This document shows, in pieces, positions 10,983 to 40,138 of a DNA stretch of 64,000 nucleotides (positions within the stretch are counted from its first letter, which is position 1; each line of letters begins with the position of its first letter). The translations under genes and the position numbers were made by a program. The stretch spans positions 62,001-126,000 of the forward strand of contig NGBS01000311.1 of the NCBI GenBank assembly GCA_002245135.1, given 5' to 3'. This stretch comes from Proteromonas lacertae. Its lineage: Eukaryota. The notes below the pieces were generated by a model. That model ran no database searches. It worked only from the letters and a program-made list of their open reading frames with translations, and had not been told where the DNA came from.

Positions 10983-12117
10983 ATGTCAGCAACATTTACA
11001 ACTCCTAGTAAAGACGGATACATTATGCCAGCAGAGTGGCATAGGCACGATATGTGTTGGATGGGATTTCCTCTCGTATATTTATCATTTATTTATGTTT
11101 TCTATCAATAGAGGCCAGATAATTGGAGAGAAAAAGCAAAACCAGCACAGGAAGCCTATTTAAATGTAGCAAAAGCAATATCAGAATTTGAAGCTGTTAC
11201 TATTTGTGCTCCACCTGAAGTATACAAAGAATGCACGAGTAAGTGTCCTGCAAACATCAGTGTTGTTCAGATGGAGATGAATGATGCATGGTTCAGAGAT
11301 ACAGGTCCAACTTTCGTTCAATCTAAAACAGGAGATGTTAGAGGAGTAAATTGGAAATTTAACGCATGGGGTGGATTAAATGGTGGTTGTTATAGTGATT
11401 GGTCAAAGGATGAAACAGTAGCACCACATATATGTGATATAGTTGGCTACAAGCGTTATGATGCTCCATTTATTCTAGAAGGAGGATCTATCCATGTAGA
11501 TGGTGAAGGAACACTAATTACAACAGCAGAATGTTTATTAAATCCAAATCGTAATCCAGATCTGAACAAACAACAAATCGAGCAATATCTCCAAAGAATA
11601 CACAGGTGCAACGAAAGTAATCTGGTTACCACACGGTCTATATGGAGATGTTGATACAAATGGTCATGTAGACAACATATGCTGTTTTGTTAGACCAGCC
11701 GAAGTTGCATTAGCTTGGACGAATAACCCATCAGATCCACAATATGGAATCTCACGTGAAGCGGAAGCAGTATTAACAATGACCCCAGATGCTAAAGGTA
11801 GAACCATTAAAATTCACAAAATCCCCATTCCAGATCCAACTTTAACAAGAACAGATAAAGAAGCAAATGGTGTAATATTTGAAGATGGAACGATAGCAAG
11901 AGAATATGGAAGATTACCAGGTAGTTATATTAACTTCTATATGGCTAATGAAGGTATTGTTTTACCTGCCTTTGATGTAGCAACTGATGAAGTAGTACGA
12001 AAACAATTTCAAGAAATCTTTCCTGATCGTAAGATAGTGAGTGTAAAAAGTAGAGAAATATTATTGGGTGGTGGTAATATTCATTGTATTACACAACAAA
12101 TGCCATCTAAGTATTAA
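10983..12117 (+). CDS. aguA: Agmatine deiminase (1 intron; +1 frameshift at ~11592)
   Basis: MPAEW, RPDNWR, DAWFRDTGP, FNAWGG, LEGGSIHVDGEGT, DTNGHVDN, SYINFY, GGGNIHCITQQ with catalytic Cys. Confidence 0.92.
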
Positions 12118-18955: not shown

Positions 18956-19044
18956 TAAATATAATTAATAAAACTATATAAATGTTTATTGTTAATTGTT
19001 AATTGTATTTGTTTAATGAGTTTATTGAATTAAAAAAAGCTTGA

Positions 19045-19148
19045 TTCTTGTTTGACATTTCAAAATGAAATTTTCAAAAATTGAAGATGTTGCTGAGTAT
19101 TTAAAAAGTGCTTATGATATTGATTTGAATGTATGAGTTATATGTGAT
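19045..19148 (+). repeat. 104-bp direct repeat, left copy (kinase-LRR 5' end)
   Basis: Matches 32173-32276 with 3 mismatches. Confidence 0.95.
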
Positions 19149-19360
19149 GTACATAGTGTAAATATTAAATCAACTATATTAACTGTAAAGATATGTGTAA
19201 AAATGTTATTATTCCATGACAAATTCATATAGATCAATTATATTATTGCATGATATTAGAATGATGTTATTGTATAAAATATTTAGATGATATTAGTCTA
19301 TTATATAATTATAATCAGTGGTCAAGAAGAATATATTATGCAATTGTATAATAATCATTT
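19065..19360 (+). pseudogene. Kinase-LRR family remnant
   Basis: First exon MKFSKIEDVAEYLKSAYDIDLN, then degraded VIIP*QIHIDQLYYCMILE*CYC resembling YIIPSQLQMIDRSVAIIERSYY of the 32193 gene. Confidence 0.6.
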
Positions 19361-19430
19361 ATTAATTACATTAATAGTATAATAATATTTAATAATTCTA
19401 TTAATAATACATATTTGAGGTTTTTATTTA

Positions 19431-20255
19431 ATGTTAGATAAAATGAATATATATATATCAATTGTATTTATTATTTTCGTCAGCTTAATTATTTTTATAT
19501 ATTATATTTATATTAAGAGAAAAAAGAATATTATTTATAAAACAGTTAATAAGTTTCCTATATTAACTATATCTATTACAGCATGTAATAGGTATAATTA
19601 CTTAAATCAGACATTAAATGCTTTTTATAGGCATTTACATTATTATGAAAAAGAAATAGACTACAACATACTGTTTTTTGATCAGGGAACTGTTGAAAGA
19701 GAAGAAGTAATTAAAAAATACAATATTAAGAACTCATTTCTATTTAATCCAAGTGGTATGGAATTGAGTTTTGATACTCTATTTTCATATTTATATACAG
19801 AGTATGTATTTCTACTTGAAGAAGATTGGGTTGTTGATAATAATGTTGAAAAGGAAATTTTCCATCCATCATTTTTATATGAAGCAATACTATTATTATC
19901 TGTTGTAAAGAAAATATATGGAATAGTAATTAGAGAAACTGATCATTTTCAAATACATGAAACAATGAATGTAACAACTAAAATGGGTAAACATACTTTG
20001 TATATTGGATTATTAAAATTACAGTATGCTTTTACGAATGGTGCAAGTGTATATAGGACAAAAAATCTAAAGGAAATTGGTGTTTATACAGGTGAAAAAC
20101 TAGTTTCAGATATATTCTTAAATAAAGGATATAAATTAGGCTTTACATATAAAGGAAGAAATGGAAGTAAAGATGATATTCATATTCAACATGTGATGGA
20201 TCATATAGGTTTTCGTACATCTAAATCTGCAATATGTAGTGTAGCTTTATATTAA
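19431..20255 (+). CDS. Type II membrane GT-A fold (GT2-like) glycosyltransferase
   Basis: N-terminal TM; ITACNRYNYLNQTL, FDQG, YVFLLEEDW; intronless. Confidence 0.7.
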   Translation: MLDKMNIYISIVFIIFVSLIIFIYYIYIKRKKNIIYKTVNKFPILTISITACNRYNYLNQTLNAFYRHLHYYEKEIDYNILFFDQGTVEREEVIKKYNIKNSFLFNPSGMELSFDTLFSYLYTEYVFLLEEDWVVDNNVEKEIFHPSFLYEAILLLSVVKKIYGIVIRETDHFQIHETMNVTTKMGKHTLYIGLLKLQYAFTNGASVYRTKNLKEIGVYTGEKLVSDIFLNKGYKLGFTYKGRNGSKDDIHIQHVMDHIGFRTSKSAICSVALY

Positions 20256-20326
20256 AAATCGCAAGTATAAATATGGATTTTTGTTAATTATTCAATGTTA
20301 TTCTATTAATTTTATTAGTTTTTAAT

Positions 20327-20410
20327 AAACACGAAAGTGAGAGGCACAACAGATAGACGCTTATTTTGGAAAAGCACGTCAATTTCGTGTTTTGTGCCTT
20401 TCGTTGTCCA
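20327..20410. other. GC-enriched intergenic element with crossed inverted repeats (pseudoknot or switch-like)
   Basis: AAACACGAAA (20327) pairs with TTTCGTGTTT (20383); AGGCACAA (20342) with TTGTGCCT (20392); inner stem GACGCTT/AAGCACGTC. Confidence 0.55.
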
Positions 20411-20766
20411 GTTTATAATATTACTCAATATTCAAAATCTAAAATCATTTTTGATTAACTCTGAAAGCGTAAAGTTAGAGAGTTAGATGGATGATAGCTA
20501 AATTGCAGAAATCTAGTAAATGTTATACAAAGAACATTATCTAAATATGGTATTTCATTAGGCAAGGTTTATAATATTTCTTTAAAACATTCAGGTGTTG
20601 TACCAAACACTATAAAAATTAATTTTTGTTATACTATGTGAATGTCTTCGTTTGTAAGGATAAAGTTAACAAATAATGAAAGAACTAATATTAAAAATAA
20701 AATATAAATTGGATATTCTGACAACATTCCAGCTATAATATAAGAATATGAATTATTTACATCTAA

Positions 20767-21558
20767 ATGGTTTATTTATTTATATTACTGATTATATGCC
20801 TTTCTATGTTTGTTATTATTTTATTGCAATATAGTAACAAAAATAGATTTGATTTAAAGAAATTTGTCGTAAATAAAGAGATGAAGAAAGAAATATCATC
20901 ACTATTATCAAGTTGTAATACACAAAATAAAAATGAAAGTGAAATATACAGCCAAGGAGATTATGTGAAATTTATGAATAATTTGTCTTGTAAGTGTAAA
21001 GGAATTGGATATTGGGGTGGATTTTGTTTAAATAAAGATAGAATATATGTGGGAGGTAATCATGAGCATGATGTTGGTTTAGCAAATATCTTAGCAGAGA
21101 TATTTCAAAACAAAACGGTTGTTGATTTGGGATCTGGTTTAGGATGGTATTGCCCAATTATATCTAAAAAATCCAAAGTGTGTGATCAATATGATGGATC
21201 AGTTAATATAGAAGAAGCTACTAATGGTAGAGTTAAATATTTAAATTTAGCTCAGCCAATAGAGTTTGATTGTAATTATGATATAGTAATGTCACTTGAA
21301 GTAGCTGAACATATACCACAAACATATGAAGAAGTATATGTGAATAATCTTGTAAAGTGTAGTAGAGAAGGAATACTAATAACATGGAGTAGAATTGGTC
21401 AAGGAGGACATTTTCATGTAAATAATAAAGATAGAAATGATGTAATTAGATTATTTGAGAGTAAAGGATTGAGATATATAAATGAAACTACTTACATGAT
21501 AAAAAATACAACAAAAATAGATTGGTTGAGGGATAATGTATTATATTTTTCAAAATAA
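20767..21558 (+). CDS. Type II membrane class I SAM-dependent methyltransferase
   Basis: N-terminal TM; VVDLGSGLG, SLEVAEHIP, GQGGHFHVN. Confidence 0.85.
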   Translation: MVYLFILLIICLSMFVIILLQYSNKNRFDLKKFVVNKEMKKEISSLLSSCNTQNKNESEIYSQGDYVKFMNNLSCKCKGIGYWGGFCLNKDRIYVGGNHEHDVGLANILAEIFQNKTVVDLGSGLGWYCPIISKKSKVCDQYDGSVNIEEATNGRVKYLNLAQPIEFDCNYDIVMSLEVAEHIPQTYEEVYVNNLVKCSREGILITWSRIGQGGHFHVNNKDRNDVIRLFESKGLRYINETTYMIKNTTKIDWLRDNVLYFSK

Positions 21559-21585
21559 CATCTCTCTCACTTTGTTATAGAAGTA
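20874..21585 (+). repeat. 712-bp inverted repeat, arm 1
   Basis: Reverse complement of 30902-31617, apart from a few substitutions and one 4-nt insertion. Confidence 0.95.
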
Positions 21586-21674
21586 TAGATTTAATGTTAT
21601 TATTTATCATTATTATAAAAACATTACAAGAAAAATTGTTGTAAATGAAATACTAGTAAATAATATTAACCACA

Positions 21675-22119
21675 ATGACTTTAGATAATACAAATACAAA
21701 TAAGGGAGTATTTAATATTTATTATTTTAGTAATGTTAATTTTAATGTATTTGTATAATAATAATCATAATAAAGAATGTGTAATTAATGATGTAATAAA
21801 CTCACACATTCTTCCAATCTATAAATTAGGTAAAAACAAGCATATCACATCAGCTCATTATATAGATTATGAAAATTATATCAATTTAATTATTTATTCA
21901 GATTCAAAAAATATTGAATTTAGCAGATGTGTAATTGTGTATCATAAATTTAAAGACGAATGTAAAGCCAAAATGCAATATGAAGGAAGTAATTACTATT
22001 ATCGAATAGAGTTAAAAACTAGAAAGGATAAAAAGCCTTTGCTTTTGTTTTTGAATAATTTAACAATAAAATTTAACAATAAAAAACGAATAGACACAGA
22101 TTCATTTGTAGTGTGTTAA
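21675..22119 (+). pseudogene. Chimeric truncated GT92 fragment with a different signal anchor
   Basis: 21787-22116 equals 25023-25352 (1 mismatch seen); different N-terminal TM; stop right after the duplicated block. Confidence 0.8.
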
Positions 22120-22199
22120 TGTCATTATTTTATGAATCTAAACCAATAAGTATTAATACAAAGAATAATATAATATACTAGTAATAAATTGGGATGAAT

Positions 22200-22893
22200 T
22201 TGATTTATTTTATCATATACCAAATTATAATATAACATCAAAGTCATACAATTCTAGTTATTTGTTTTCATTATGCCCATTTAATAGTGAATCGCTAAAT
22301 AGTATAAAAGAGTTGAAGTATATATCATTTACATACATATAGTGTGATTTATTAGTAGGAATAATAAATAACTTAAGATTATCTAAGAATCTAAAGGATA
22401 TATTCAACAAAATGTTAATCGTTAATAAACATATAACAAAAGATGTTAATCTGTTTTTATCAAAGTATAGGTTAGTAGATTATATTGGAGTGCAAATGAG
22501 AGTAGGAAATGATGATTTACATGAAAGACAATTTTCAGTTTATATGATATAAAAATGATGATAGATTTGGCAAGAAGAAATAAGAAATATAAGAAATGGT
22601 TTTTAACAGGAGATTCACTGAGATTAAAACTGAATATAAGCAAAACATATAAACAAGTCATTTTATTTTCCAAGAACATATCTATACACTTTGCTTATAA
22701 TTTAAAAGAATCATCAATTATTATTGAACATGAAATGTTGTCAAAATCAAAATTTCTTATAATTTCAAAAAGTACATATGGATTAACATCTATGCTAAAG
22801 TCTGGTTTGTTATTATCCAAACATAATTTGAGTTATGAAGTAGAATATGGGTTAATATTTAATATGAAAAGTAAGTTTAGCAAGTTTCAGTAA
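22200..22893 (+). pseudogene. Fucosyltransferase-like (GT-B) remnant
   Basis: YIGVQMRVGND, WFLTGDS and LSKSKFLIISKSTYG resemble fucosyltransferase motifs I-III; in-frame stop and frameshift. Confidence 0.6.
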
Positions 22894-22901
22894 TATTTTA
22901 T

Positions 22902-23885
22902 ATGGATAGAATTAATGAGTATGGTATTATATACTTACTTATATTAATTATAATAATGATTATATATATTATAATTTATGTAAACTATGATGAATCTGAG
23001 ATATTATTTAAAAGCATTGTCATGAAAGAATTGTTTTACATTAGAAATACAACCGATAATAACTTACCAATATTATATAGTAGAAGATACACATCTGAAT
23101 CATACTATGTGAAGAATAAGACATTAATCAAAATGGAGAATAAAACAGTGAATTATAATACAAACTTTATCAAAAGACAGTCTAAAATCTTAGTTGCAAT
23201 TCATTCTCACATATCATTGTTTTATCATAGATATGTCTTTAGAAAAATATACAAAATATATAGGGATATTCAAGTATTATTTTTTATAGCATTAGATTAT
23301 AATCAAACATTAAACTCTCAGTTGTTAAAAGAAATGAAAATTTATCAAGATATTGTTCTATTCAATTTCAATTGCAATTATTATAATCTACATTTTTTAA
23401 CATATAATTTTCTTAAATGGGTTAAGAAGTATAAAAGTTTGTATGATGTGATAGTTAAACAGGATACTGATACATTTGTTAATATTCATATACTTCAATT
23501 AATGATAAAACAAGTGTTAAATAAAAACAATAAATCATTTGTTTTAGGATATATATGGGGATATGAAAATGTGAATATAAGATATCCTAGCGGAATGTCA
23601 TATGTATTTTTATCAAAATCAATTGATAAATTAGTTGTTCATTTAGATGAAGAATTCGATAGAGTGTATTATGGTTATCCTGAAGATATGTTTTTTGGAA
23701 GATTGGCAAGAAGAGCAAATTTCGATTTTATTGATGCTAATTTTACCTTTAATTACACTATATATATAGAAATTCCTAATATTATATTTGATGCAAAAAA
23801 GATATATATGATTCACTGGTTGAGAATTTCTGAAATAGCATTTTTACATTTGAATTGCAGCAACAGAAGGAATTTCGAAGTATAA
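22902..23885 (+). CDS. GT31-like galactosyltransferase, type II membrane
   Basis: TM; EMKIYQDIV, IVKQDTDTFVN, YPSGMSY, PEDMFFG. Confidence 0.8.
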   Translation: MDRINEYGIIYLLILIIIMIIYIIIYVNYDESEILFKSIVMKELFYIRNTTDNNLPILYSRRYTSESYYVKNKTLIKMENKTVNYNTNFIKRQSKILVAIHSHISLFYHRYVFRKIYKIYRDIQVLFFIALDYNQTLNSQLLKEMKIYQDIVLFNFNCNYYNLHFLTYNFLKWVKKYKSLYDVIVKQDTDTFVNIHILQLMIKQVLNKNNKSFVLGYIWGYENVNIRYPSGMSYVFLSKSIDKLVVHLDEEFDRVYYGYPEDMFFGRLARRANFDFIDANFTFNYTIYIEIPNIIFDAKKIYMIHWLRISEIAFLHLNCSNRRNFEV

Positions 23886-23916
23886 TTTATATATAAATTC
23901 ATATTGGTTGTAAGAA

Positions 23917-24823
23917 ATGGAGTTTTTTGTTACTTTATTATTTCTTGTACTAATAACCATTATTGTAGTATTGTTATTCTATATTAAGATTAATAATAAA
24001 TCATGAAATAAATATAATAGAAATTATTCAAAGTATATAAAATATCTTGATCAGAAATGGGAAAATTTTGAATCAAGAAGAGGACGATTATCTGATCAAC
24101 ATATAAGAACACAGCTATTTCCGTTAATCAAAGAGATTATTCTAGTTTTATCAAAAAAATAATGTATATATGATATTGGTGGAAATATTGGAGATATAAC
24201 AGAAATGTTTAATAAATACTACCCTAACAATTACATATTCACTGTTGAACCTTTAGAAGCTAATTATAAAGAAATGAAATCAAGAATTAATAGAACCAAG
24301 AAGATTAAGCTTTACAACATTGCATTAGGATCATTTGATGGGAATAGAGTATCTAATACATTAAATAGTGGAGGTTTAGGAGATTATTTATATCCAGGAA
24401 GATTAATGAATGAATTTAACATTAAATATATGAAAACTGATTCATTTTATAAGAAATTTTATATATATATATATATATATATATCTTATAGCAAATAATA
24501 TGGAAATGCTCTTTTTCAAATTAGATACAGAAGGATTTGAAGATGATATTATGTACAATGCAAAGTATTTATTGGAAAATGAAAAAATCAAAATAATATA
24601 TTTAGAATATCATCAAGGATATTGTAAAGAGTATGAATCTAATCTAATTCATTATTTGAATAAATATGGTTTTAATACATATTTAGTGGGAAGTAATTTT
24701 CTATTAAGTACTAATGATTGTCCAAATTACTCATTGGATAGATTTAGTTTAGGTCATATTATAGGTTTTCATACCACAAAAGAAATTGAAAATGATTTTA
24801 TAAAGAAGTACAACAAGTCTTAG
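23917..24823 (+). pseudogene. FkbM-family methyltransferase, disrupted
   Basis: TM, YDIGGNIG, TVEPL, KLDTEGFE; in-frame TGA 24004 and TAA 24160; (TA)n intron lacking a GT donor. Confidence 0.75.
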
Positions 24824-24932
24824 TAAATATTTTATACTAAATGGTTATTATGTATTTGATTTTTGATTTTTAAACACTAAAGCTTGATGAAAGTTCAAGC
24901 TTACTTTTCAAATAGAATATTATAAGCAGAAT

Positions 24933-26123
24933 ATGAAAATAAGACTAATTATCATATTCGTTATATCTTTAGTTTTATTATCAATATGTTTGTATAGTAA
25001 GTATAATAATAGTTTTATAGGAAATGATGTAATAAACTCACACATTCTTCCAATCTATAAATTAGGTAAAAACAAGTATATCACATCAGCTCATTATATA
25101 GATTATGAAAATTATATCAATTTAATTATTTATTCAGATTCAAAAAATATTGAATTTAGCAGATGTGTAATTGTGTATCATAAATTTAAAGACGAATGTA
25201 AAGCCAAAATGCAATATGAAGGAAGTAATTACTATTATCGAATAGAGTTAAAAACTAGAAAGGATAAAAAGCCTTTGCTTTTGTTTTTGAATAATTTAAC
25301 AATAAAATTTAACAATAAAAAACGAATAGACACAGATTCATTTGTAGTGTGTATATCAATTGTAGTAAAACTAAAAAGGCCTCTTATGCTTATACAGTTG
25401 ATTGAATCATATAGAAAATTCGGAGTATCAAAAATTGTTGTAAATTATCAATCATCATCAGTAGATGTTATAAAGGTATTGAATTATTATAATCAAATGG
25501 GCGTTGTAGATATATATCAATATAATGATACTGTAGATGAGAGGTTTAGAGATATTGAAAATGATGTTAATCCATATATATATTATTTTCAAATATGGAA
25601 GATAAATCAATGTTATTTTGATTATAAAACTCCATCAAATCACATTATTGTATTAGATGTAGATGAAATTCTTTGGCCAGTTAAAGCATCTAATTATAAA
25701 GAGCTGTTTAAGTCATTACCAAAAATGGATTACTTTTTTTTGCATCAATTCTTTTACAAAATTGAAATTAATATCCCTAGAAATAAAGATCATACAACCG
25801 ATCTTACAGATGTGGATATATTTTCTATAAGGAATTATTGCCCTACTTCCAATGGAATAGCTCACAAATATATAATCCATAATACCAGCAAAATCACTAA
25901 AGCTGAAGTTCATTTTGTACAATATAAAGAAAATGTCAATCAGCAATATATACCCAATAATATTGCTTATGTTAGACATACCAGGCATTATGATGATAAT
26001 ATAAAAGTAATGTGTATTAATTCATCTATTACACATAATACATCAGCAGTTGAGAATAAACTTCATCTTTTATCCAAATCAGTTTATAAAAAAATATTGA
26101 ATAAGATATTTCTAGGGAGATAA
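24933..26123 (+). CDS. GT92 (DUF23)-like glycosyltransferase
   Basis: TM; FVVCIS, LIESYRKFGVSK, QIWKINQC, IIVLDVDEILWP, KYII, VHF. Confidence 0.8.
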   Translation: MKIRLIIIFVISLVLLSICLYSKYNNSFIGNDVINSHILPIYKLGKNKYITSAHYIDYENYINLIIYSDSKNIEFSRCVIVYHKFKDECKAKMQYEGSNYYYRIELKTRKDKKPLLLFLNNLTIKFNNKKRIDTDSFVVCISIVVKLKRPLMLIQLIESYRKFGVSKIVVNYQSSSVDVIKVLNYYNQMGVVDIYQYNDTVDERFRDIENDVNPYIYYFQIWKINQCYFDYKTPSNHIIVLDVDEILWPVKASNYKELFKSLPKMDYFFLHQFFYKIEINIPRNKDHTTDLTDVDIFSIRNYCPTSNGIAHKYIIHNTSKITKAEVHFVQYKENVNQQYIPNNIAYVRHTRHYDDNIKVMCINSSITHNTSAVENKLHLLSKSVYKKILNKIFLGR

Positions 26124-26738
26124 TTCTCAAAACTTTGTTAATACAACATTTTTATCTTCTTTTTTCAATAAAGTTGCGATTACATTCTATGTGTGTTTAA
26201 AATGTTGTTATTACCAGAATCATAAAAATAAAAATGGTTATATGTCACTCTAACACTATTAATTTCATCTTCTTTATACACACACTATAAATTGTCTGAT
26301 TATATTTTTTTCTAATTAATATCAAATTCACATTACCAAATATGTTCTATATGAAGCTTAATCATAAAAAATAAAATAAAAATATCAAGCTTTTGGCTTG
26401 TGATTTTTGATTTTTTTTTTTTTTGAATATTGTAATTAATGTTAGTCAATCAATTATATAGGTACTAGCATTTGAAATGATAAAGTTATGTAAGTCTTAC
26501 CAGAATGTTTGCGAATTTTTCTGTAATAGATTTAAAATTAACTCAATTAACTTGATAGTTAATCGCTTCCCTAAGCTGTATTATTAAGTTTAAATCATGC
26601 TTAATTTTTAGCAATTTTGAGGGTAATAAATGATTAATTTCTATATTACTATGAAGAGGCTGATATAAAGAATTTAATTACAGAGGTAGAAATAGAATAA
26701 TAAATTAAAATGGAATTATAAAGAATTAAAATAACAGA

Positions 26739-27587
26739 TTATACAAAGTATTTTTCTATTTCTTCTCTTGTAGTTGATTTATACTTTTGGTTATAATCAT
26801 AGTGAATAGAGAAGTTATAAGCTCTATTATTAGAACACAAATCAGTTTTACCATTTAGAAATGATATTAATGTTAAAGAACTTTGATCTTGTCTGTGATT
26901 TGATCTATCTGATCCAGGAGGAGCAATACAATCATGTTGTAAAGCACATTTCTCCCATTCATACAATATTTTTTCTGCTAAACGAGAAGGATACATAAAA
27001 GCCACAGTTCCACCAGCACAACATGTTTTATTCAACCATTTATCAGGAAAATTGAAATGTTTTAACATTAAAGGATGTGTATATTTCTTAATATCGTGAC
27101 TAGTTCTTTGAGACCATACTTTGTTTTTCTTGATATTTTCTATCATATAGTTTATACTTCCAGTTATATTACATCCAGCATCAAGCCAAACAACAGGATG
27201 TTTGTATTTTTTATACACTTCATATATTATTACTGGTTTCCATGCATATTCACCTGCAGCAACTGATATATTGAAATATGATGGATAGTTATTGAAAGGA
27301 AAATTTTGTAATAGAAATAATGGATGATTGAGTTTATATCTGTTAAGTAAATAAAGTGTATTTTGTGATAATCCTAGATTATATACAATCATCAGAAATC
27401 TGTTGTTATGTACATAAAATGTGTGAATCATGTTTAATAATAACAATTCGTGGTTTTCTGATCCTCCAGTTACAATTACATAATCATAATCCAATATTTC
27501 ATTATTCTTTACAAACATATTATACATATATATAATAAATATTATAAAAATACAGCTAATGAAAAACTTGGTTTTAAATCTAAACAT
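26739..27587 (-). CDS. DUF1647-like putative glycosyltransferase
   Basis: TM; VTGGSENH, VYNLGLS, YAWKPVII, WLDAG, HRQDQS. Confidence 0.75.
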   Translation of the reverse strand: MFRFKTKFFISCIFIIFIIYMYNMFVKNNEILDYDYVIVTGGSENHELLLLNMIHTFYVHNNRFLMIVYNLGLSQNTLYLLNRYKLNHPLFLLQNFPFNNYPSYFNISVAAGEYAWKPVIIYEVYKKYKHPVVWLDAGCNITGSINYMIENIKKNKVWSQRTSHDIKKYTHPLMLKHFNFPDKWLNKTCCAGGTVAFMYPSRLAEKILYEWEKCALQHDCIAPPGSDRSNHRQDQSSLTLISFLNGKTDLCSNNRAYNFSIHYDYNQKYKSTTREEIEKYFV

Positions 27588-28498
27588 TAAAATAAATAAT
27601 TTACATATTTAGAAACAACTGAAATGTAGTTTAGTCCATATTCATTGGTTTTGAATAAAAATTGTATTAGTGGAACAATATTCTCTACCCAATAATGAAT
27701 AGTATCATTAGGTAGATGTGGAAGATGTATATCTATTATTTCATTCCAATTAGCAGACATATTCTTTTTCCATTCTTCATTATTATCTCCTCTGTCAAAT
27801 CTTGTATTATCATATGATCTTTTATGGAAGTTTATTTTATTTGGATAGAATTTTGATTTTCTTATTTTGTCTCTCATATATATTTCATCAATACAATATC
27901 CATATCTTATATAATCTGAATCTATTATCTCTTTTACTAATTCATACTCGTTTGCTTTGTTTAGTATATCAATTTTTAGTATATCCTCATACATTTGTTT
28001 TGTTCCGCTGAAATAACACATAGGCCATCTTCTACTTACATATCCATTCAATCCAAAGGATTTTATGGTGAAATTGGTATAAGAATAATCCTGAAAAAAT
28101 GTGTAGTTATAGGGAAGCATATCAACATCAGAAATGTACAATATACTATTCTCTTTTTTGATTTGCAACGAACTAAAAATTCTGCACAGTTTGGAGAAAT
28201 ATTCTAAAGAATAGTTTTGTGGAATAACAATTTCTTTATATATAGCTTCTTGTTCAGTTAATTTGTTGACTAACTCATTTGGCAATTTTTGATGTGATAT
28301 AATGTATATAATCGATGTATATCCAAATATTCTCCACATTTTCACAAAAAGCGGAATGTAAAAGAGATATGGGCCAGATGCTGAAATTCCAACATATTTT
28401 TCAAAATTATTACTGTTATATATATTTATATAATTGCATAAGAATAAAAAGATGATGAATAATAAAACTATGATAAAGTAGTTGTATAGTCTTTTCAT
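27587..28498 (-). CDS. Putative type II membrane glycosyltransferase (DxD)
   Basis: TM; ISDVDMLP, RWPMCY, IDE, RFDR, DIH; family not assignable by eye. Confidence 0.6.
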   Translation of the reverse strand: MKRLYNYFIIVLLFIIFLFLCNYINIYNSNNFEKYVGISASGPYLFYIPLFVKMWRIFGYTSIIYIISHQKLPNELVNKLTEQEAIYKEIVIPQNYSLEYFSKLCRIFSSLQIKKENSILYISDVDMLPYNYTFFQDYSYTNFTIKSFGLNGYVSRRWPMCYFSGTKQMYEDILKIDILNKANEYELVKEIIDSDYIRYGYCIDEIYMRDKIRKSKFYPNKINFHKRSYDNTRFDRGDNNEEWKKNMSANWNEIIDIHLPHLPNDTIHYWVENIVPLIQFLFKTNEYGLNYISVVSKYVNYLF

Positions 28499-29545
28499 AT
28501 GTATGTTGTTTTTATATTCCTTTTGTTATTTCTAGCTTTTATAATGAATTATTACTATTTATTTTCAAATAATAATGAATATAATAATATTAGGAAGAAA
28601 GTATATGAAATTTTAACATTAGACATTTATGATAGATTATTTAAAAATGTCAGTTTAACATACTTGGGAAATAGAGTAAATTACAAGAATAATATACTAA
28701 AATACGCATTTGTGAGTTTTATAACTGGTGAAGATTATATTAAATTGATAAATGGAACTATATACTCAGTACACCAATTTTCTAATTATCCTATAGTTTT
28801 ATATGTTGCTGGTGTAATAACAAAGACTATGAATGAAGTCTTTTCACATTATAATAGATTATTAGTTTATTCTATTCCACCTGAAACAACAACTCCTTAT
28901 TTTATAAAATTAAGAGCTTCATTATTAGCTCCAGTTTTGGTAGGTCAAATAGTTGAAGCAGATACAATAGTATTACCTGGCGCAGATTGTTTATTTAAAA
29001 GAATAGAAGAAGAAATTAATGAAAAATATCCTTTTCCAATGATGCCTAGACATCCTGATATAAGAGGCGTTGAAAAGGGAAATGGAACAACAAACATACT
29101 TGATTATCCAATGAATAATAGATCAATGAGATATATGCATGCTCATATGTCTTGGACTTATCATGCTTTACCATTTATAGCATATGTGTATAACAAATCT
29201 TTCATATATGACTATGGAAATGATGAATATGCTTTAAATATCAATTTGTGGGAAAGAAAAGCAAATAAACAATGGTGTATTTATGATCCATACTACAGCG
29301 TAGTAGATATATCACATTCTAGTGATGTCTTCTATAAAACAGATGATATGCTGACGATATATAATTACATTCATGGATGTAAATCTTACATATATCAACA
29401 GAGATTGATAAATAAACTAACACTACTTAAACAAAATGAATATAAAATAATTTACGCTACAAACAAATCTATTCATTTTTCACAATCCTGTAAATTAGAT
29501 AATTTAATTTTAAAAGAAATTTATAAGGAAAATTGTTTAATCTAA
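28499..29545 (+). CDS. Putative type II membrane GT-A-like transferase
   Basis: TM; YSVHQFSNYPIVLY, FIKLRA, IVEADTI, DEYALNINLW, IHGCK. Confidence 0.6.
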   Translation: MYVVFIFLLLFLAFIMNYYYLFSNNNEYNNIRKKVYEILTLDIYDRLFKNVSLTYLGNRVNYKNNILKYAFVSFITGEDYIKLINGTIYSVHQFSNYPIVLYVAGVITKTMNEVFSHYNRLLVYSIPPETTTPYFIKLRASLLAPVLVGQIVEADTIVLPGADCLFKRIEEEINEKYPFPMMPRHPDIRGVEKGNGTTNILDYPMNNRSMRYMHAHMSWTYHALPFIAYVYNKSFIYDYGNDEYALNINLWERKANKQWCIYDPYYSVVDISHSSDVFYKTDDMLTIYNYIHGCKSYIYQQRLINKLTLLKQNEYKIIYATNKSIHFSQSCKLDNLILKEIYKENCLI

Positions 29546-29550
29546 GTTCA

Positions 29551-30516
29551 TTATCTATATTTTATATATTTGCAATGTAAAAAATATATCTCATGAGGTT
29601 TTAATCTGTGAATCATAAAGATGTTATCAACAGAATCAATCACAATACTACCTTCTCCAATTATCTTATTATATTTTCTAACATCACACATACTTACGTT
29701 TGATATTTTTGATAATCTTCCTATAAATACATCTTCTGGTTTACCGTAACAGTTACTATTTATTTCAGAAGTACTTCCCTTCAATAAAGCATTTATAAGA
29801 TTAAATGGTATTACATACCCCATTCCACTAGGAAAATAACCTATAATATATCCCCATATATGATTTTCTGCACTTTCTGATGATTTTGAATGTAATTCTT
29901 TGAGTACATTAATGTTAATGAAAGTATCTGTATCATGTTTAATTAACCATTTGAAGTGAGTGTGAAGCTTTGAACTCCATAATAGAATATTATAGGTTTG
30001 TAGTTCTAATGCATAATAAGATGATAAGAAATTGAATTGAATAACATCTTTAGAATGTTTTATCTCTTTTGTAATTTTTCTATTAATAATTGATTCATTA
30101 CTCTTCCCTGTGATAAATATATATGACAAGAATATATATCCTCTATATATTTTTCTAAATACTTCTCTTTCATAGAACATATCTGGTTCTGAAATTACAG
30201 TAATTAGATATTCACAGTCTTTTATTGTAGGATAATCTAGGTCATTATGGCTAAATTCATTTAATAATAACACATATGGATTTGATTTTCTATTCTTTAA
30301 GTACAATTCATCAAATTTTCTACTACAAGTTACTTTTTTTGTCCTATTAAAACATTGTTCAATTTTTTCAATATCTTTAGATAAAATATTATCAAAATTT
30401 GCAATACTTGAATTGCATGTAAGAATGAGTGTAATTATTATAAAACCACCAAAAGCTATAATAAGCTTTGAATAAAATATTATTAGTCTTATAAATTTTG
30501 ATATAATATAATACAT
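29551..30516 (-). CDS. GT31-like galactosyltransferase (paralog of 22902)
   Basis: TM; WLIKHDTDTFIN, FPSGMGY, PEDVFIG, MIHRL. Confidence 0.8.
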   Translation of the reverse strand: MYYIISKFIRLIIFYSKLIIAFGGFIIITLILTCNSSIANFDNILSKDIEKIEQCFNRTKKVTCSRKFDELYLKNRKSNPYVLLLNEFSHNDLDYPTIKDCEYLITVISEPDMFYEREVFRKIYRGYIFLSYIFITGKSNESIINRKITKEIKHSKDVIQFNFLSSYYALELQTYNILLWSSKLHTHFKWLIKHDTDTFININVLKELHSKSSESAENHIWGYIIGYFPSGMGYVIPFNLINALLKGSTSEINSNCYGKPEDVFIGRLSKISNVSMCDVRKYNKIIGEGSIVIDSVDNIFMIHRLKPHEIYFLHCKYIKYR

Positions 30517-30901
30517 AAATAAATCATTTTTTAATCACAACATTTTATAAATATCCTTTAAATATTCTGTATTTGAAATTTATTGCTATTCTTTCTATAA
30601 TTCTATATGATTTTAATGTTAAATTATTTCAAGGAGGTTATTTAGGAGTAGACATACTACTTGTACTAACATGTTTTAACTTGCTATATGCTACTGCTGT
30701 ATTTACCTGATACAACAAATATATTGTTGAAGCGAAAGAAGAAAGAAACGGAGTAATGCTAAGTATCATTTTCACTTTAATTCATATATTTTTATTCTCT
30801 CATATAATATACACATTATTCATAACTGCAATTATCCGTAGCAATTGTCTAAATAATATTAAAAAAGAAATATGCTTTAAGCCATTGTAATGAATATTTT
30901 T

Positions 30902-31617
30902 TACTTCTATAACAAAGTGAAAGAGATGTTATTTTGAAAAATATAATACATTATCCCTCAACCAATCTATTTTTGTTGTATTTTTTATCATGTAAGTAGT
31001 TTCATTTATATATCTCAATCCTTTACTCTCAAATAATCTAATTACATCATTTCTATCTTTATTATTTACATGAATATGTCCTCCTTGACCAATTCTACTC
31101 CATGTTATTAGTATTCCTTCTCTACTACACTTTACAAGATTATTCACATATACTTCTTCATATGTTTGTGGTATATGTTCAGCTACTTCAAGTGACATTA
31201 CTATATCATAATTACAATCAAACTCTATTGGCTGAGCTAAATTTAAATATTTTACTCTGCCATTAGTAGCTTCTTCTATATTAACTGATCCATCATATTG
31301 ATCGCAGACTTTGGATTTTTTAGATATAATTGGGCAATACCATCCTAAACCAGATCCCAAATCAACAACCGTTTTGTTTTGAAATATCTCTGCTAAGATA
31401 TTTGCTAAACTAACATCATGCTCATGATTACCTCCCACATACATATATTCTATCTTTATTTAAACAAAATCCACCCCAATATCCAATTCCTTTTCACTTA
31501 CAAGACAAATTATTCATAAATTTCGCATAATCTCCTTGGCTATATATTTCACTTTCATTTTTATTTTGTGTATTACAACTTGATAATAGTGATGATATTT
31601 CTTTCTTCATCTCTTTA
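30902..31617 (-). pseudogene. 5'-truncated copy of the SAM methyltransferase (inverted repeat arm 2)
   Basis: Lacks the TM; TGT>TGA near 31495 and a 4-nt ATGT duplication near 31441; residual 171-aa ORF. Confidence 0.85.
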
Positions 31618-31639
31618 GCATATTATTATATGAATAATT

Positions 31640-31905
31640 GGTGTAACTTTTAAATATCCAAATGAATTACTTTTAACAGATACTCATGGAGATCAATTAT
31701 ATCCAAGAATTTTGAAAATATGAAGAAACTGTTTAATATAATACCTAAAGTTGATTATATAATTACTTCTCACTACCTTACTCAGAGAAGTAATAATACT
31801 GCTTTTAAAATTAACTATTACACTTATCTGGAAATGTTATTAAGATATTGAGGTTATAAAATATATGTAATACATGATACACCTCATTTCAATGTTGATC
31901 CAAAT
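31640..31905 (+). pseudogene. SGNH-domain (O-acyltransferase C-terminal-like) fragment
   Basis: LLLTDTHGDQLYP resembles the GDSHA block; KIYVIHDTPHFNVDP; interrupted by stops. Confidence 0.4.
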
Positions 31906-32172
31906 TTATAATATGTATCATTTTTATGTAGCACTACTTCTTAAGCATATTCATTTTGAAAAGCAAAGAATAAAAGATAATCTCAATTGTAGTAAGTCTT
32001 TAAAATGTGGTTATTCATCTTGTATAAAGATTAGTAAAAGCTGAAGGTAGTAGTATATCTCCAGTAATGGTGTTTCTTCATTTTACTACAATATTAAATG
32101 ACTGTAAATAGCTTTAATTCTGGTTCGATACATTTTAATAGCTTCATTTTGAAAGAATCTTAAAATGTTTGT

Positions 32173-32276
32173 TTCTTGTTTGACATTTCAAAATGAAATT
32201 TTCAAAAATTGAAGATGTTACTGAGTGTTTAAAAAGTGCTTATGGTATTGATTTGAATGTATGAGTTATATGTGAT
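32173..32276 (+). repeat. 104-bp direct repeat, right copy
   Basis: Matches 19045-19148. Confidence 0.95.
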
Positions 32277-35200
32277 ATAAATAATAGGATTTCGAGGTGA
32301 TAATAAAAAGCAGAGATGAAATTCGTGTAATGAAAGATGATCATACTAAAATACTAAAAATCTTTAATATTAGAGGTATAGAAGAAGATATTTTAAAGTT
32401 TATAAGGGAAAACTACTATTTCTTGGATATAATTTCTCTTCCTTACATTATTCCATCACAATTACAAATGATTGATCGTAGTGTGGCGATTATTGAGAGA
32501 AGTTATTATGTTATTGACTTAGAAGAGATGATTCATAATAAATCTATTTCATATGTTGATATATGTAGTATGATGTGTTCATTGTGTGATATTCTAATGA
32601 TACTAAGTGAAAATGACTTAGTGATAAGCAATTTGAAGAGTAGTAATTTGATATATGAAAGAGATGGTGAAGTTAATTTATGTGATTTATGTTTGAATAA
32701 ATTGAGAAGAGAAGAAGATATGAGAGTATTTGATATGTGCTTCAAAAGCCCAGAAGAATTGAATGGATTAGAATGTAATGAGAGAAGTATGATTTGGTCA
32801 ATTGGATGTGTATTATATGAAATGATAAACAAAAGATTACCATTTTCTGAAGATTATGAAATATATAAAACAATCGATAATATTGTGAGATGTAAATACA
32901 GTTGTGGGATGAAATGTGATGATTCAATGAAAGAAATAATACAAAGAATGTTGAAAGTGAAGAGAGAAGAGAGATTGAGTATAAAAGAGTTGAATAAAGA
33001 GATGACAAAAATAAGTAAAATATTCAGAGATGGAAATGATAATTTAATGATATGTAATGATAGAAAAGAAAAATTATTCAATGCTGATTATTCAATTGTT
33101 TCATTTCCAATAATTTTTCCACAAAAATATTATCTTAAAAATGATAAATGGAAAGAAATTCGAGATGATTTAATAGAATCATACAACAATAATCCAAATG
33201 AAAGAATACTGTCAATATTATTGATTATTAAACTATACAAATCAGATATATCAATAAAAAATAATATAAAATTTCAAATTCTTCATAAATGTGATGAAGG
33301 AAAAGAATGTTATTTAGATAGAATGATATATAATCTTAAAACTGATAAAGAAATCATCAGAATTGGTGCAAAATATATTTGTTTTTGTAAAGAAGGTATT
33401 AGTTATTTATTTAGGTTATTAAATTTGATCAATCCAGCGAAACTATCATTTTGTATTATTCTAATCATATTTATTTTTATAGATTATGATGATGTTATTA
33501 TTCCATACAAAATTCAATCATTATTCGGATTATATTTTAGTCGATTATCAAATCTAGAAGAATTATATATATCACAATGTAATCTTACTTCTCAATTCAT
33601 TGAGTCATTTATTAAGTCAATTCAACTGTCCAAATTGAAACATGTGAGATTAGAATGTATTTTATTTTATATAACTATGAAATAGATAATCCAATTGGTC
33701 CAAAAGGCTTCAAATTATTACTTCCATATTTGCATTTATTATACAACGAAAATCATGAATTGAATCTAATAGGGATGAATTTAAATGATGAATCAATTAT
33801 ATTATTATCAGAAGAAATATACAGATATGCAAATATTGAGAAAATAAATATAACAGAAAACAATATTCATTCAAGAGAATTAAAAGCTTTATTCTCCAAA
33901 TTTCCTATTACAAAAATCAAGTTTGATTTTAATGGAAGTATAAAGCTACTGATAGATAAAGACATTCCAGAATTATTAAAATACATAATAAAGAGTAATA
34001 AATTTTTTCTGAGTAATTATGAAATTGATGATAATTTTTTCAAATCATTCATTTCATGGAGATTAAATGAATTAAGAGAAATAGAAGATTTAGATCTGAG
34101 TAGTATATGTTGATATTTTTATATTATTTAGATAATAAACTAACACATGAAAGTGTCAAAATACTGATTAACAATTTATCTTCATTACTAAAATTACAGC
34201 ATCTTCAATTGTATGGAAATGAAATAGGAGATGAAGGAATGATATTATTATCTCAGGAAGTATATTTATTGAAAAAAAGGTATGGTAATGAAATAAATTG
34301 TTCAAGTATTATTATTATATCTTTTTTTTTATATAGAAATGGGATTATCATCAGTTGGAATGAAATATTTAGTTGATGGTTTAAAGAAAATTGATGATAG
34401 GATAGTACTTGATATAAGTGATAATAGTATAGATTCAGATGGAATAGAATATTTGATGAATAATGTGAAAGAAAATGATATTGTTAAAAAGATATTTATT
34501 CATGGTATATTTATATATAATTTAATAAATGTTTAATAGATAATCCAATTGGAAATAGTGGATTTAAATTGTTAGAAAAAAATCTGAATATGATTATATA
34601 TGGTTTAATGAATTTAAGTAATATCTCAATAGATGATGAAAGTGTAATGTTATTAACAAATAATATAAAATCATTTAGAGAATGTGAAACAGTTAATCTA
34701 AAAGGAAATAATATCAAAATGAAGGGATTAAAATCAATTTGTTCAAAATCGTTAAAAAAAGAAGAACATCCATTTATAGAAATGAATAATTCATCATGGA
34801 CAAATGAAGAATTGGAATATTATTTGGATTATTGTATTAAAAAGAAACGAAATAAGTTTTATAAAGAATATAATTTTTCAAGTATATTATCTATATTTTT
34901 AATAAAATAGATATGAATTTGAATGATTCTCACATCTCATTGATTAAACAGATCGGTTATGAAAAGCTTGAAATATGTAATAATAGAATAACTTCAAAAG
35001 GGTTGAAAGAAATATCAGATTGCTTTTCAGAAGAAGTGAAATATCTCACCTTATTTAATAATGATATTGGAGATAAAGGAATAGAGATAATCTGTAAATA
35101 TTTGGATATATTTGTAGAAAAGAATAGTAGATATAATCCTTCATCATTAAATATCTCAGGTATTATATGACTATAATTTAATAAAATATTTTGAATAGAT

Positions 35201-35500
35201 GTAGGAATGAGTGAAAAAGGATTGATAATGTTAATAGAAAGAATAAAAGAATATTATACATTAGAAAAGATAGATATATCAGGAAATGAATTAAATGAGA
35301 ATGAATTGAGATTAATGAAGCACAACAATGAAGTCATTGATTGTTTGTATGAATTATCAATAACAGTGAAAGAAAACATAGATAAATCAGAATTAAAATC
35401 ATTTCTAGAAACATTTTCAACAATTGGAAGAATAAAAATAAATGGAATATCAGAAGAAGAAAAGAGTGAATTATCAAATAAATTATGGAATATACAGTAA
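32193..35500 (+). CDS. Pseudokinase fused to RNI-like leucine-rich repeats (multi-exon)
   Basis: NLKSSNL, SPE, IWSIGCVLYEM, R motifs; HRD and DFG replaced; LxLxxNxIGDxG repeats; intron 32259-32287 and several more. Confidence 0.8.
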
Positions 35501-36471
35501 TGTTTTATTCACTATGAAATATATTGAGATTTTTGTTTGAAAATTAAAAATATAATTTAAAAAATAGAGATATATTTATTTGTGTAGTAATATTTCTTAA
35601 TAACTCCTTCTAATTAAGGAAATAAGATTATGTTAGATTTAAAATGGAATGGATTTATGATATAGAAAGAAGTTGATTAACAATGTCAAAAATGTAATAA
35701 GAAAATGTAAAGTATATTCAAATAAGATAGCATGGATAAATACAGAATTAACAATGTTATATATCAAATAAGTAATTAATCCTTATACTCAAGGAAAATG
35801 GTGAATTTTAATTTCGGATCATTTCTATTGCCATCATCAACATTCTATTATTGAATTATGGTTAAAAATTATATAACATAGATAATGAATTTACTAAAGA
35901 GCTGAATATAAAATACTGGAAAAAAGTATTTGACTTATCAAAGATAAAGATAGTGAATGCATGGATCTAGTTAAAGTAATGATAAGCATTTATGAGAAAG
36001 AAAAAATTCAGTTCTTGAAAAGATTAATGAAAATAGTAATACTAAAACTCAATATATAAAAGATTAATTGTAATGTTATTTTTTAGTTATCTTTTTTAGT
36101 TTTTTTTGTAATAAATAAAAAAAAAAATAAACATTTTCTGGCTTGTTTTAATCAAGCTTTTTCATTTTAATATCATTAACAGCGAGAATAAGAGATAAGT
36201 TTTGATTTACAAACTTTGAAAAGAAGTAGCAGAAATAGAAAATAAAATATAATAATACAATGAAAGAAATGTCGTAGATCAGTACTGGCAAAGCAACTCA
36301 ACTCAAATATATCACAATTATTGTGAAAAGAATAAATCGCACTAACAAAAATAATAGAAAATAACTATTTGAATATCGTTTTGAAGAAAGTGGATCATTT
36401 AAAACACTATTAAGTGAATTTAATCATTCAAATAATGTAGTAATACCTTCTGCCAAAAAAATAAATGATAT

Positions 36472-36582
36472 AATCAAGCTCAAACTTTTTATTCTTAATT
36501 TTTCTTATTCTTTCTATATTTGACAGCCTTAGCCACTTATGCACTTTCATATATTAACAGATCATGGGAATTATATATAAGA
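36472..36582 (-). repeat. 111-bp dispersed repeat, copy A
   Basis: Reverse complement of 40028-40138 with 7 mismatches. Confidence 0.9.
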
Positions 36583-36676
36583 TTGTACAAATTTTGAGTA
36601 TCGACTTCAAATTGTGTATTACTATTAAAAATATTAAAAAACAAATTAAACATACAAATAAGAGTAAATAAATAAA

Positions 36677-37814
36677 TTAAACTAAAAATACTTCACCTCT
36701 TTCTTTATGAACTCTTCTACTTATTGAATTCTTATTATTTACATTAGCTATATTATAAAAAATCAATCCACACAATGATATTATTATTCCCAAATAATTC
36801 GTTAAACTCAAATTCCTTCCGAAATAATATACAGAATATAAAACTATAAACACTCTTTTAAAAGAAGACAAAACTGAAAATGAAAGTGCACTGATTTTAT
36901 TCATAACTGAATAAGCACTTATCGATGCAAAATATACACAAATACATGTGAAAAATACTCTCAACCAATGAATATTTGAAAATGTTGGATTGAAATACTC
37001 TGAAAATAATGAAATAGGAGTTAATATCAATCCTGATAATAAACAGTTATAAAAATGAGTCTATAAAACAAATAATAATAATAATAATATACATTGTATT
37101 TATCAAAACCAGATATCAATAGTTTCTTTGTATATATATTCTGTGATACAGCCATAATACAAGAAAGTAAGGAAAAAATAAATCCAAAAAATTGAAACTC
37201 CACTTCACTCACACTTGACATTACAACACCTACAACAATAGGAATTAGTGACATATAAACATAAAACGAGAATGACTGTTGTAATATCAGTGTGGATAGA
37301 ATAACGTTAAACAGTGGCATTGATGCTTTGATAGTATGAACAAGCGATACTGGAACCATACCATAACTGAATAGTGTTAATAGACGATTTAGACTGAAAA
37401 ACATTGCTATTGGTGAAATCCGTTTGAAGAGTTCAAATATTGATACGTGTTTCCAATGAGCAAAAGTGATTTTGTTATGACTTAACAATATCGCTAATTA
37501 AATATTAGATAATTATATACCATCACATATTGCACAGAAGAACATTTGAATTGCTGACAAAGTAGCTGCATTAATGGCTTTATCATTAACTTTGCTAGTT
37601 AACAGCATTTTATTTTGATTAGCTGAAAATATGGAGTTATAGTACCAAAATAGAATTGATAGAATGATCTATATATTAGAAATAAGAATACTGAAAGACA
37701 ATTACCATATTCGCAGTAAAAATGTGTAAAGATACTAGAGTTCTTTTCTTTCAGATCATCATTATCCTGTGTGACAGGCAGCTGCTTGCTGGCTACTCTC
37801 AAATAACTGCTCAT
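36677..37814 (-). CDS. Triose-phosphate/nucleotide-sugar transporter family (SLC35E-like)
   Basis: VPVSLVHTIKASMPLF, SLIPIVVGV, ISALSFSVLSSFKRVF; multiple TMs; short introns. Confidence 0.85.
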
Positions 37815-39367: not shown

Positions 39368-39544
39368 TCGAAAATTCAAAAAATTCAAAAGTGAAAAGCA
39401 AGTTTGGCTTGATTTTATAAAATGAGATAAACATGTGCAAAAAGATGTTGTATGTTAAAATATACATCTGATGATATGATTTAATCGAATAGTGTTTAAA
39501 TTATAATTAATAATTGTATTTCATGTAAAACCTTACTTTTTTTA

Positions 39545-40027: not shown

Positions 40028-40138
40028 TCTTATATATAGGTCCCATGATCTGTTAATATATGAGAGTGTATAAGAGGTTAAGGCTGTCAAATATAGAATG
40101 AATAAGAAAAATTAAGAATAAAAAGTTTGAGCTTGATT
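40028..40138 (+). repeat. 111-bp dispersed repeat, copy B, directly upstream of ATG 40158
   Basis: Inverted match to 36472-36582. Confidence 0.9.

Follow-up and report, generated by a model that had tools for sequence, protein, structure and literature searches.

Eight intact, single-exon genes, each predicted to encode an enzyme with an N-terminal membrane anchor, lie between two copies of a 104-bp direct repeat in a 64,000-nucleotide stretch of the Proteromonas lacertae genome (assembly GCA_002245135.1, contig NGBS01000311.1, positions 62,001 to 126,000; hereafter the window, in whose coordinates all positions are given). These results suggest, with a probability that we put at roughly 0.55, that the 13-kb block between the repeat copies (here the island) is a resident cluster whose products jointly make a lineage-specific Golgi glycan, and that the repeat, a second copy of the 5' end of a neighbouring kinase-LRR (leucine-rich repeat) gene, is a by-product of local duplications. 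The observation is largely sound, and the cluster is genuine and somewhat unusual. Mobility of the island has yet to be proved, and the present evidence makes it the less likely reading.

An earlier reading of the same DNA, made from its letters and a list of its translated open reading frames (ORFs) and here called the sequence-only reading, had described a glycan-modification island. That description is reasonable in that eight anchored genes are adjacent and four of them match Golgi-glycan families; for three of the eight no family was found. We infer that the island genes share a pathway; the evidence on gene content, on decay, on the repeat and on the contrast with the flanking genes is presented below, together with the readings that compete with ours.

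Intact genes of the island

There are eight intact ORFs between the repeat copies (Table 1), and a simple Kyte-Doolittle hydropathy window places one N-terminal hydrophobic segment in each of them (8/8). From this layout the eight proteins are likely to be of the Golgi type II kind, with a single N-terminal signal-anchor followed by a lumenal domain. The sequence-only reading had counted seven membrane genes and one methyltransferase; the total of eight agrees with ours, but the methyltransferase is N-terminally anchored as well. The Pfam matches that exceed their cut-offs are to GT31 (twice), GT92 and, marginally, DUF1647. All three are eukaryote-type families known from Golgi glycan synthesis.

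The assignments of these four genes, all proposed earlier, are upheld by the scores. Both GT31 proteins match PF01762 far above the cut-off of 23 bits, g5 with 47.7 bits (E-value 2e-12, profile positions 19-128 of 195) and g11 with 52.5 bits (E-value 7e-14, positions 21-118 of 195), and the two are 31% identical to one another. Members of GT31 carry a DxD metal-binding motif and, downstream of it, E-D-V/M..G; the translations have DTD at the residues given in Table 1, together with PEDMFFG in g5 and PEDVFIG in g11. The GT92 protein, g7, covers most of its profile (PF01697, E-value 2e-19, 70.6 bits against a cut-off of 23, positions 2-224 of 249) and has four full-length homologues at 54-70% identity, in all of which (4/4) PF01697 is found. 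The DUF1647 assignment of g8 is retained by a narrow score (PF07801, E-value 8e-6, 26.0 bits against 25.7, positions 59-140 of 141).

The methyltransferase-like protein, g2, falls below the relevant threshold (Methyltransf_23, E-value 8e-5, 22.8 bits, cut-off 27), with weak pointers in PHROGs and NCBIfam to a tRNA (transfer RNA) methyltransferase (6e-4) and to UbiG (1e-3); a scan of prokaryote genomes based on g2 returned no match. For g1 the label 'GT2-like' given in the sequence-only reading is unsupported: the Pfam GT2 profile (PF00535) scores 13.9 bits against a cut-off of 23.3 (E-value 0.054) and the protein has no DxD. Searches with g1 gave a best PDB E-value of 0.22, no NCBIfam match and a chance-level PHROGs E-value of 0.085.

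The remaining two, g9 and g10, had been described as unassigned DxD-type proteins, which is correct for g9, with its conserved D-V/A-D, but not for g10, which has no DxD and only E-A/S-D-T; DxD motifs are thus found in both GT31 genes, in GT92 and in g9. For g9, matches are at chance level (best PDB E-value 0.4; single homologues at E-values of 0.12 in Pfam and 0.019 in NCBIfam) and absent from PHROGs, and for g10 no match beyond chance-level scores was found in Pfam, PDB, PHROGs or NCBIfam. The nearest Atlas clusters of g10 are named 'nucleotide-diphospho-sugar transferase' and GT8-like (0.94-0.95), which we treat as a lead only. AlphaFold models built from shallow alignments were unusable for both g9 and g10 (predicted local distance difference test, pLDDT, 42.8 and 42.6). 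For the unassigned proteins, PDB sequence and profile searches gave chance-level matches at most (best E-value 0.17) or none.

Full-length homologues of g9 (three, 73-90% identity) and g10 (four, 54-65%) were recovered; like those of GT92, they come from assemblies of public runs, in which they lie on contigs of 1-9.5 kb. In both proteins the lumenal part is conserved, strongly so in g9, and the anchor variable, a pattern that would be expected of working enzymes. Alignments of GT92, g9 and g10 showed no profile-profile relation among the three; this, together with the 31% identity of the GT31 pair, indicates that several different families are combined here, unlike in a simple tandem array. 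A eukaryotic glycan gene cluster calls for at least three adjacent non-homologous genes of one pathway; the island has GT31, GT92, DUF1647, a methyltransferase-like gene and three unassigned genes, no relation was found in the pairs compared, and the pathway is presumably a common one.

Table 1. Features of the island and of the adjoining kinase-LRR gene, in window coordinates
Feature	Positions	Strand	Description
Left repeat copy	19045..19148	+	Solo fragment of the kinase-LRR 5' end; ATG at 19065
g1	19431..20255	+	Intact, 274 amino acids (aa); N-terminal anchor (hydrophobic residues 2-30); family unassigned
g2	20767..21558	+	Intact, 263 aa; anchored; S-adenosylmethionine (SAM) methyltransferase-like; source of the inverted duplicate
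GT92 fragment	21698..22119	+	Dead; anchor and stem region only
Broken ORF pieces	22169..22893	+	'Fucosyltransferase' of the sequence-only reading; 1-nt frameshift near 22525-22545; possible 54-nt intron 22302-22355
g5	22902..23885	+	Intact, 327 aa; GT31 (Galactosyl_T); N-terminal anchor; DTD at residue 188
FkbM-type methyltransferase gene	23917..24823	+	Dead; anchor kept; broken
g7	24933..26123	+	Intact, 396 aa; GT92; N-terminal anchor; DVD at residue 242
g8	26739..27587	-	Intact, 282 aa; DUF1647 family; N-terminal anchor; ATG overlaps g9 stop codon
g9	27587..28498	-	Intact, 303 aa; anchored; no known family; conserved D-V/A-D motif
g10	28499..29545	+	Intact, 348 aa; anchored; no known family; ATG abuts g9 ATG (CAT/ATG)
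g11	29551..30516	-	Intact, 321 aa; GT31; N-terminal anchor; DTD at residue 195
Short broken ORFs	30519..30887	+	One in-frame stop
Inverted copy of g2	30902..31617	-	Dead methyltransferase copy; first 107 nt gone; both homology ends sharp
Stop-riddled stretch	31667..32150	+	'SGNH' of the sequence-only reading; three read-through frames, no Pfam match
Right repeat copy	32173..32276	+	Working 5' end of the kinase-LRR gene; ATG at 32193
Kinase-LRR gene	32193..35500	+	Exon 1 32193-32258, 29-nt intron, kinase exon, LRR exons with introns of about 29-39 nt

Dead and broken genes

About 40% of the island is relic or spacer sequence. The sequence-only reading had counted about five broken relatives; decayed copies of GT92, of the methyltransferase and of an FkbM gene are indeed present, but its 'fucosyltransferase' and 'SGNH' are without database support. 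The supposed fucosyltransferase and SGNH relics, translated with read-through, have no match in Pfam or PDB, and the short broken ORFs at 30519-30887 have none in Pfam; a motif hints that the latter may be the N-terminal remnant of an acyltransferase-3-type gene.

The GT92 fragment, 84.8% identical to the intact GT92 protein over 138 aa, is a mosaic in which about 330 nt with one mismatch (a 99.7% core) adjoin some 95 nt of about 70% identity on the 5' side. The inverted copy of g2 aligns with its source over 716 columns, of which 702 are identical, 10 are mismatches and four are gap columns (a 4-nt insertion); one of its TGT codons has become a TGA nonsense codon, and the copy occupies the place of part of another broken gene. 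The FkbM-like gene is interrupted by two in-frame stops (TGA at 24004, TAA at 24160) and by a frameshift within a (TA)12 run (24460-24484), and only its C-terminal piece approaches a family threshold (Methyltransf_21, E-value 4e-4, 21 bits against a cut-off of 22.7).

The relics are far more decayed than the 97% identity of the repeat copies. They are therefore older than the repeat, and the block must have existed before the repeat formed. We set this against a cassette gained through the repeats; the order of events itself fits either a resident cluster that was patched later or a block that moved in whole. The breaks in the FkbM gene, the inverted methyltransferase copy and the GT92 mosaic speak for long residence and turnover.

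A break was also seen outside the island. The agmatine deiminase (PAD_porph) domain at 11112-12117 is split over two overlapping frames near 11590-11600 without an intron signal, an apparent +1 frameshift that could be an assembly indel, a pseudogene or recoding. Since a conserved flanking gene is frameshifted in this way without an intron, gene breaks that consist of a frameshift alone need to be read with caution.

The repeat and the kinase-LRR gene

The bracketing of the island by a 104-bp direct repeat of the kinase-LRR 5' end, reported in the sequence-only reading, holds at the coordinates that it gave: the two copies are identical at 101 of 104 bases, with three differences. A looser alignment (19034-19155 with 32162-32283) has 114 identical columns out of 122, and a 36-mer derived from the repeat occurs exactly twice in the window, where none was expected from 100 shuffles. 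Each copy opens with a leader of about 20 nt; the 22 codons (66 nt) of kinase-LRR exon 1 follow, and then 18 nt from the start of the 29-nt intron. All three differences, as read from the alignment, lie in the exon and change an amino acid.

At the right-hand end the repeat is part of what appears to be a working gene, whose exon and intron structure was read from the sequence alone. Intron 1 (32259-32287) has the form GTATGA..AATAG, and its removal gives an in-frame junction to the kinase ORF that starts at 32288. The kinase domain is well supported (Pkinase in Pfam, E-value 4e-18), and LRR_6 matches, all of them sub-threshold, occur in four of the six ORF pieces downstream of the kinase exon. 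The left copy begins 90 nt past the SEC15 stop (18955), with its ATG 110 nt past that stop, and its similarity to the right copy ends 18 nt into kinase intron 1. A tblastn search with the kinase ORF found no further kinase sequence inside the island. Splicing of the left exon copy to g1 was considered and dropped: an in-frame GT..AG pair is present, but it would delimit an intron of 288 nt, compared with 23-55 nt in this genome.

The island compared with its flanks

The window has a GC content of about 25%. The flanking genes are of ordinary eukaryotic kinds and encode Piwi/PAZ, agmatine deiminase, an RNase Z-like protein, SEC15, the kinase, a TPT-family transporter, NEMP, an EH-domain dynamin-like protein and Sfi1. 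Candidate introns of the window start with GTA (mostly GTAT), end with TAG, are AT-rich and measure about 23-55 nt. The standard genetic code fits: long ORFs stop at TAA, TGA or TAG, and the island ORFs, which stop at TAA, give proteins colinear with their homologues when read in this code, for which reasons a ciliate code was dropped. Rfam and tRNA scans gave no match. Of 10 window proteins, none had an exact counterpart in the protein collection searched.

An intron is needed by none of the eight intact island genes and by 13 of 20 flanking genes (Fisher p = 0.0025; scripted ORF-joining for short introns, with gene spans placed by eye), which bears out the earlier contrast between an intronless island and intron-rich flanks. 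Six intron candidates do occur between the repeat copies, all of them outside the intact genes. Stop codons differ as well: TAA ends all eight intact island genes (19431-30516) and eight of 18 flanking genes (Fisher p = 0.0095, a post hoc comparison).

The island genes are separated by spacers of 0-8 nt. The stop codon of g9 overlaps the start of g8 (27585-27589), the starts of g9 and g10 abut head to head (28496-28501), and the ends of g10 and g11 lie 5 nt apart (29543-29553). With no spacers between genes, promoters would have to reside in the coding sequence of a neighbour, or leaders would have to be extremely short. Sharing of an upstream motif, TTGATTCTTRTTT, does not exceed chance (four matches, 2.55 expected).

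By composition the island does not depart from its host. Synonymous codon use (relative synonymous codon usage, RSCU) is alike in island and flanks, and GC content at third codon positions (GC3) is 0.14-0.23 in the island and 0.13-0.27 in the in-frame flanking genes, the pooled flank values being noisy in that four of 22 flank segments (3.5 of 30.7 kb) are out of frame. The dinucleotide distance from island to flank is 83, compared with 75 +/- 22 among flank windows. Because island and flanks are both at about 25% GC, however, this match is weak evidence against a foreign origin.

A gene of the TPT/EamA family with short introns lies on the reverse strand 4 kb downstream of the island (36428-37760). 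In non-photosynthetic cells this family includes Golgi nucleotide-sugar transporters, and the gene may serve the island cluster.

Duplications in the window

A scan of the whole window found five recent short duplications of 104-716 nt and 93.7-99.7% identity, three of which are internal to the island or border it. Their divergences (0.3%, 1.4%, 2.9% and 6.3%) are unequal, as would be expected if copying in this region were still going on, for instance by templated break repair or gene conversion.

One of the others is a direct repeat (39503-39929 and 42492-42915) with a core of about 370 nt and one mismatch. It comprises the upstream region, ATG and some 50 codons of a 2378-codon gene, copied 3 kb upstream in front of a 768-codon ORF, a layout that matches that of the island in that a copied gene start brackets the intervening sequence. 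The 768- and 2378-codon ORFs also share a stretch of 88% identity (40333-40558 and 43067-43292, 226 nt) and look like tandem paralogues whose 5' ends may have been homogenised. The 768-codon ORF (40137-42443), without a convincing Pfam family, holds 9-10 tandem units of 201-204 nt, 69-94% identical, at 40547-42469; the 2378-codon ORF (42745-49881) is a single ORF without a Pfam family and has dispersed internal repeats of about 65-69 nt. The arms of a 111-nt inverted repeat (36472-36582 and 40028-40138; 104/111 identical, 93.7%) are found, respectively, close to where the TPT-family gene has its 3' end and immediately upstream of the 768-codon ORF. At the far left of the window, a 960-codon ORF contains two tandem 105-nt units, 99% identical, at 3786-3995.

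Origin of the island

In the reading that we favour, the island proteins would be Golgi type II enzymes acting on one glycan, to which the GT31 and GT92 enzymes would add sugars that the methyltransferase would then cap. Nucleotide-sugar transporters would bring in the sugar donors, and the TPT-family gene perhaps encodes one of them. The cluster would turn over by local duplication, gene conversion and decay, and a break next to SEC15 would at some time have been repaired with a copied kinase 5' end. If the repeat copies recombined, the block would be lost and the kinase gene would stay intact; no observation indicates that this takes place.

Several points weigh against this account. The absence of introns, the uniform TAA stops and the 0-8 nt spacers set the island apart and fit a block with a history of its own. 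The left repeat copy stands exactly at the outer edge of the cluster, and deletion between the copies would restore a normal SEC15-kinase arrangement; by a rough estimate (a 0.5-kb target in 6-8 kb of dispensable sequence), a random patch would fall at the cluster edge with a chance of about 6-8%. The agreement in composition carries little weight where everything is at about 25% GC. Three of the eight proteins are without a family, with unusable structure models for g9 and g10, and the function, localisation and co-expression of the island genes are putative.

The same edge placement speaks for a cassette, as proposed in the sequence-only reading. The block would then have entered as a unit at the first intron of the kinase gene and could be lost again through the 104-bp repeats, so that a surface glycan would vary by presence and absence. 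Either a circle with a piece of the kinase 5' end integrated by a single crossover, or the insertion produced a long target duplication. The bracketing by direct repeats is exact, and as at genomic islands the repeats include the end of the target gene (here the kinase 5' end); the predicted empty site is a normal gene junction, intron content, stop codons and spacing differ from those of the flanks, and the relics, being older than the repeat, place the block before it. Other signs of a genomic island are missing, however: no terminal inverted repeats were reported at the block ends, and no integrase, recombinase, transposase or reverse-transcriptase family was matched in Pfam by the block ORFs scanned (the eight intact ORFs, 22 further short or relic ORFs out of 62 listed and seven read-through translations). 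The composition is that of the flanks, and similar short duplications occur elsewhere in the window without any such cassette. We consider entry as a unit unlikely. Its most elaborate form is more doubtful still: a presence/absence-variable surface-glycan cassette, integrated by a single crossover at kinase intron 1 through the 104-bp homology, reversible by pop-out, possibly seeded long ago by a giant virus and amounting to a recombinase-free counterpart of an O-antigen island.

A further reading, which we consider very unlikely, takes the left copy to be all that survives of a second, paralogous kinase gene in tandem; gene conversion would have preserved its similarity while glycan genes accumulated between the two. 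The window offers a precedent in the pair at 39.8-49.9 kb, with near-identical 5' ends (about 370 nt, one mismatch) and diverged bodies (88% over 226 nt), but the island bears no trace of a kinase body or LRR exon, the homology stops inside the 29-nt intron, and the body would have had to give way to 13 kb of unrelated genes, old relics among them, with exon 1 meanwhile preserved at 97% identity. Slighter still is the prospect that the block is old domesticated foreign DNA, such as a giant-virus glycosylation cluster, adapted to the composition of its host. Against it, GT31, GT92 and DUF1647 are eukaryote-type and the composition equals that of the flanks; Pfam found no viral hallmark family among the block ORFs, and neither PHROGs nor NCBIfam gave a meaningful match. 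Close viral relatives were not found either: scans of viral contigs with GT92, g9, g10, DUF1647, g1, a GT92 alignment and the repeat 36-mer returned no relative's locus, these scans being pattern-based and of limited reach. In its favour, the genes lack introns, stand close together on both strands and all end in TAA; the nearest Atlas clusters of g10 are mostly viral, a proximity that Atlas itself calls no sign of transfer; and giant viruses with glycosylation gene clusters have been reported (PMC10117803).

As a side result of the viral-contig scans, the GT92 query flagged one stretch as encoding a GT92 relative, without giving a locus; when the scan was repeated with the GT92 alignment, no such stretch appeared. 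In metagenomes, neither SEC15 nor the GT92 alignment, used as queries, yielded a relative.

Least probable of all is that the layout is in part an artefact of assembly, through a wrong join at the repeated kinase 5' end or through indel errors that made false broken genes. The agmatine deiminase frameshift shows that indel errors are possible, and the FkbM frameshift sits in the (TA)12 run. The repeat copies, however, differ at three bases and are each set in unique sequence to left and right; even with a wrong join, a kinase fragment would have to lie beside the island, and the dead genes carry nonsense codons and truncations in addition to frameshifts.

Known systems and significance

In eukaryotes, the genes of a single glycan pathway are seldom adjacent. 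In a full-text literature search for intronless clusters of this kind in protists, none of the matches listed (15 of 234) contained the phrase 'glycosyltransferase gene cluster', although a description of such a cluster may still exist in print. The sequence-only reading had proposed a eukaryotic analogue of a bacterial capsule or O-antigen locus, and there is a likeness: in both, unrelated glycosyltransferase and methyltransferase genes and decayed copies are contiguous at one chromosomal site, joined in the island by relics that may be acyltransferase-like. In content the analogy fails. Pfam and NCBIfam found in the island no flippase or polymerase (Wzx/Wzy), no ATP-binding cassette (ABC) exporter and no chain-length or sugar-nucleotide synthesis gene, and there was no bacterial NCBIfam match; the island genes are moreover on both strands, and their products are Golgi-type, N-terminally anchored enzymes of eukaryote-type families.

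Within eukaryotes, the closest precedents come from Leishmania, Aspergillus and nematodes. Among protists, the SCG genes of Leishmania form a dispersed family of paralogues. They are comparable in being protist glycosyltransferase genes whose variation changes a surface glycan, and one report links the SCG-encoded galactosylation pattern of lipophosphoglycan to survival in the sand-fly vector (PMC2978724). One paralogue family stands there against at least six unrelated families at one site here. In Aspergillus, galactosaminogalactan is the known product of a co-regulated five-gene cluster (PMC4817252, PMC8224951). It resembles the island in being a eukaryotic cluster of different genes, there functionally linked for one extracellular glycan, but its gene families differ and the island is about 40% relic or spacer.

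The same Pfam families, GT92 and DUF1647, recur among surface-glycan genes of nematodes, and in Caenorhabditis mutations in GT92 genes are reported to alter susceptibility to a virus and to surface-binding bacteria (PMC13520123, PMC10151413, PMC7614267); the host organism is another one, and the island is a multi-family cluster. Giant-virus glycosylation gene clusters (PMC10117803, PMC9614988) offer a formal parallel, being likewise compact and intronless and lying in AT-rich DNA, but the island has no viral hallmark gene among the ORFs scanned and its flanks are ordinary intron-bearing cellular genes.

With eight anchored enzymes from at least six unrelated families, spacers of 0-8 nt and dead copies alongside, the island would represent a compact genetic handle on the building and changing of a glycan, probably one of the cell surface, in a little-studied AT-rich eukaryote. 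By analogy with the nematodes, where GT92-family genes are reported to set susceptibility to viruses and surface-binding bacteria, the rapid turnover of the island could reflect similar pressure. If the block should prove variable between isolates, which is conjecture, it would allow glycan variation by cassettes to be tested in a eukaryote.

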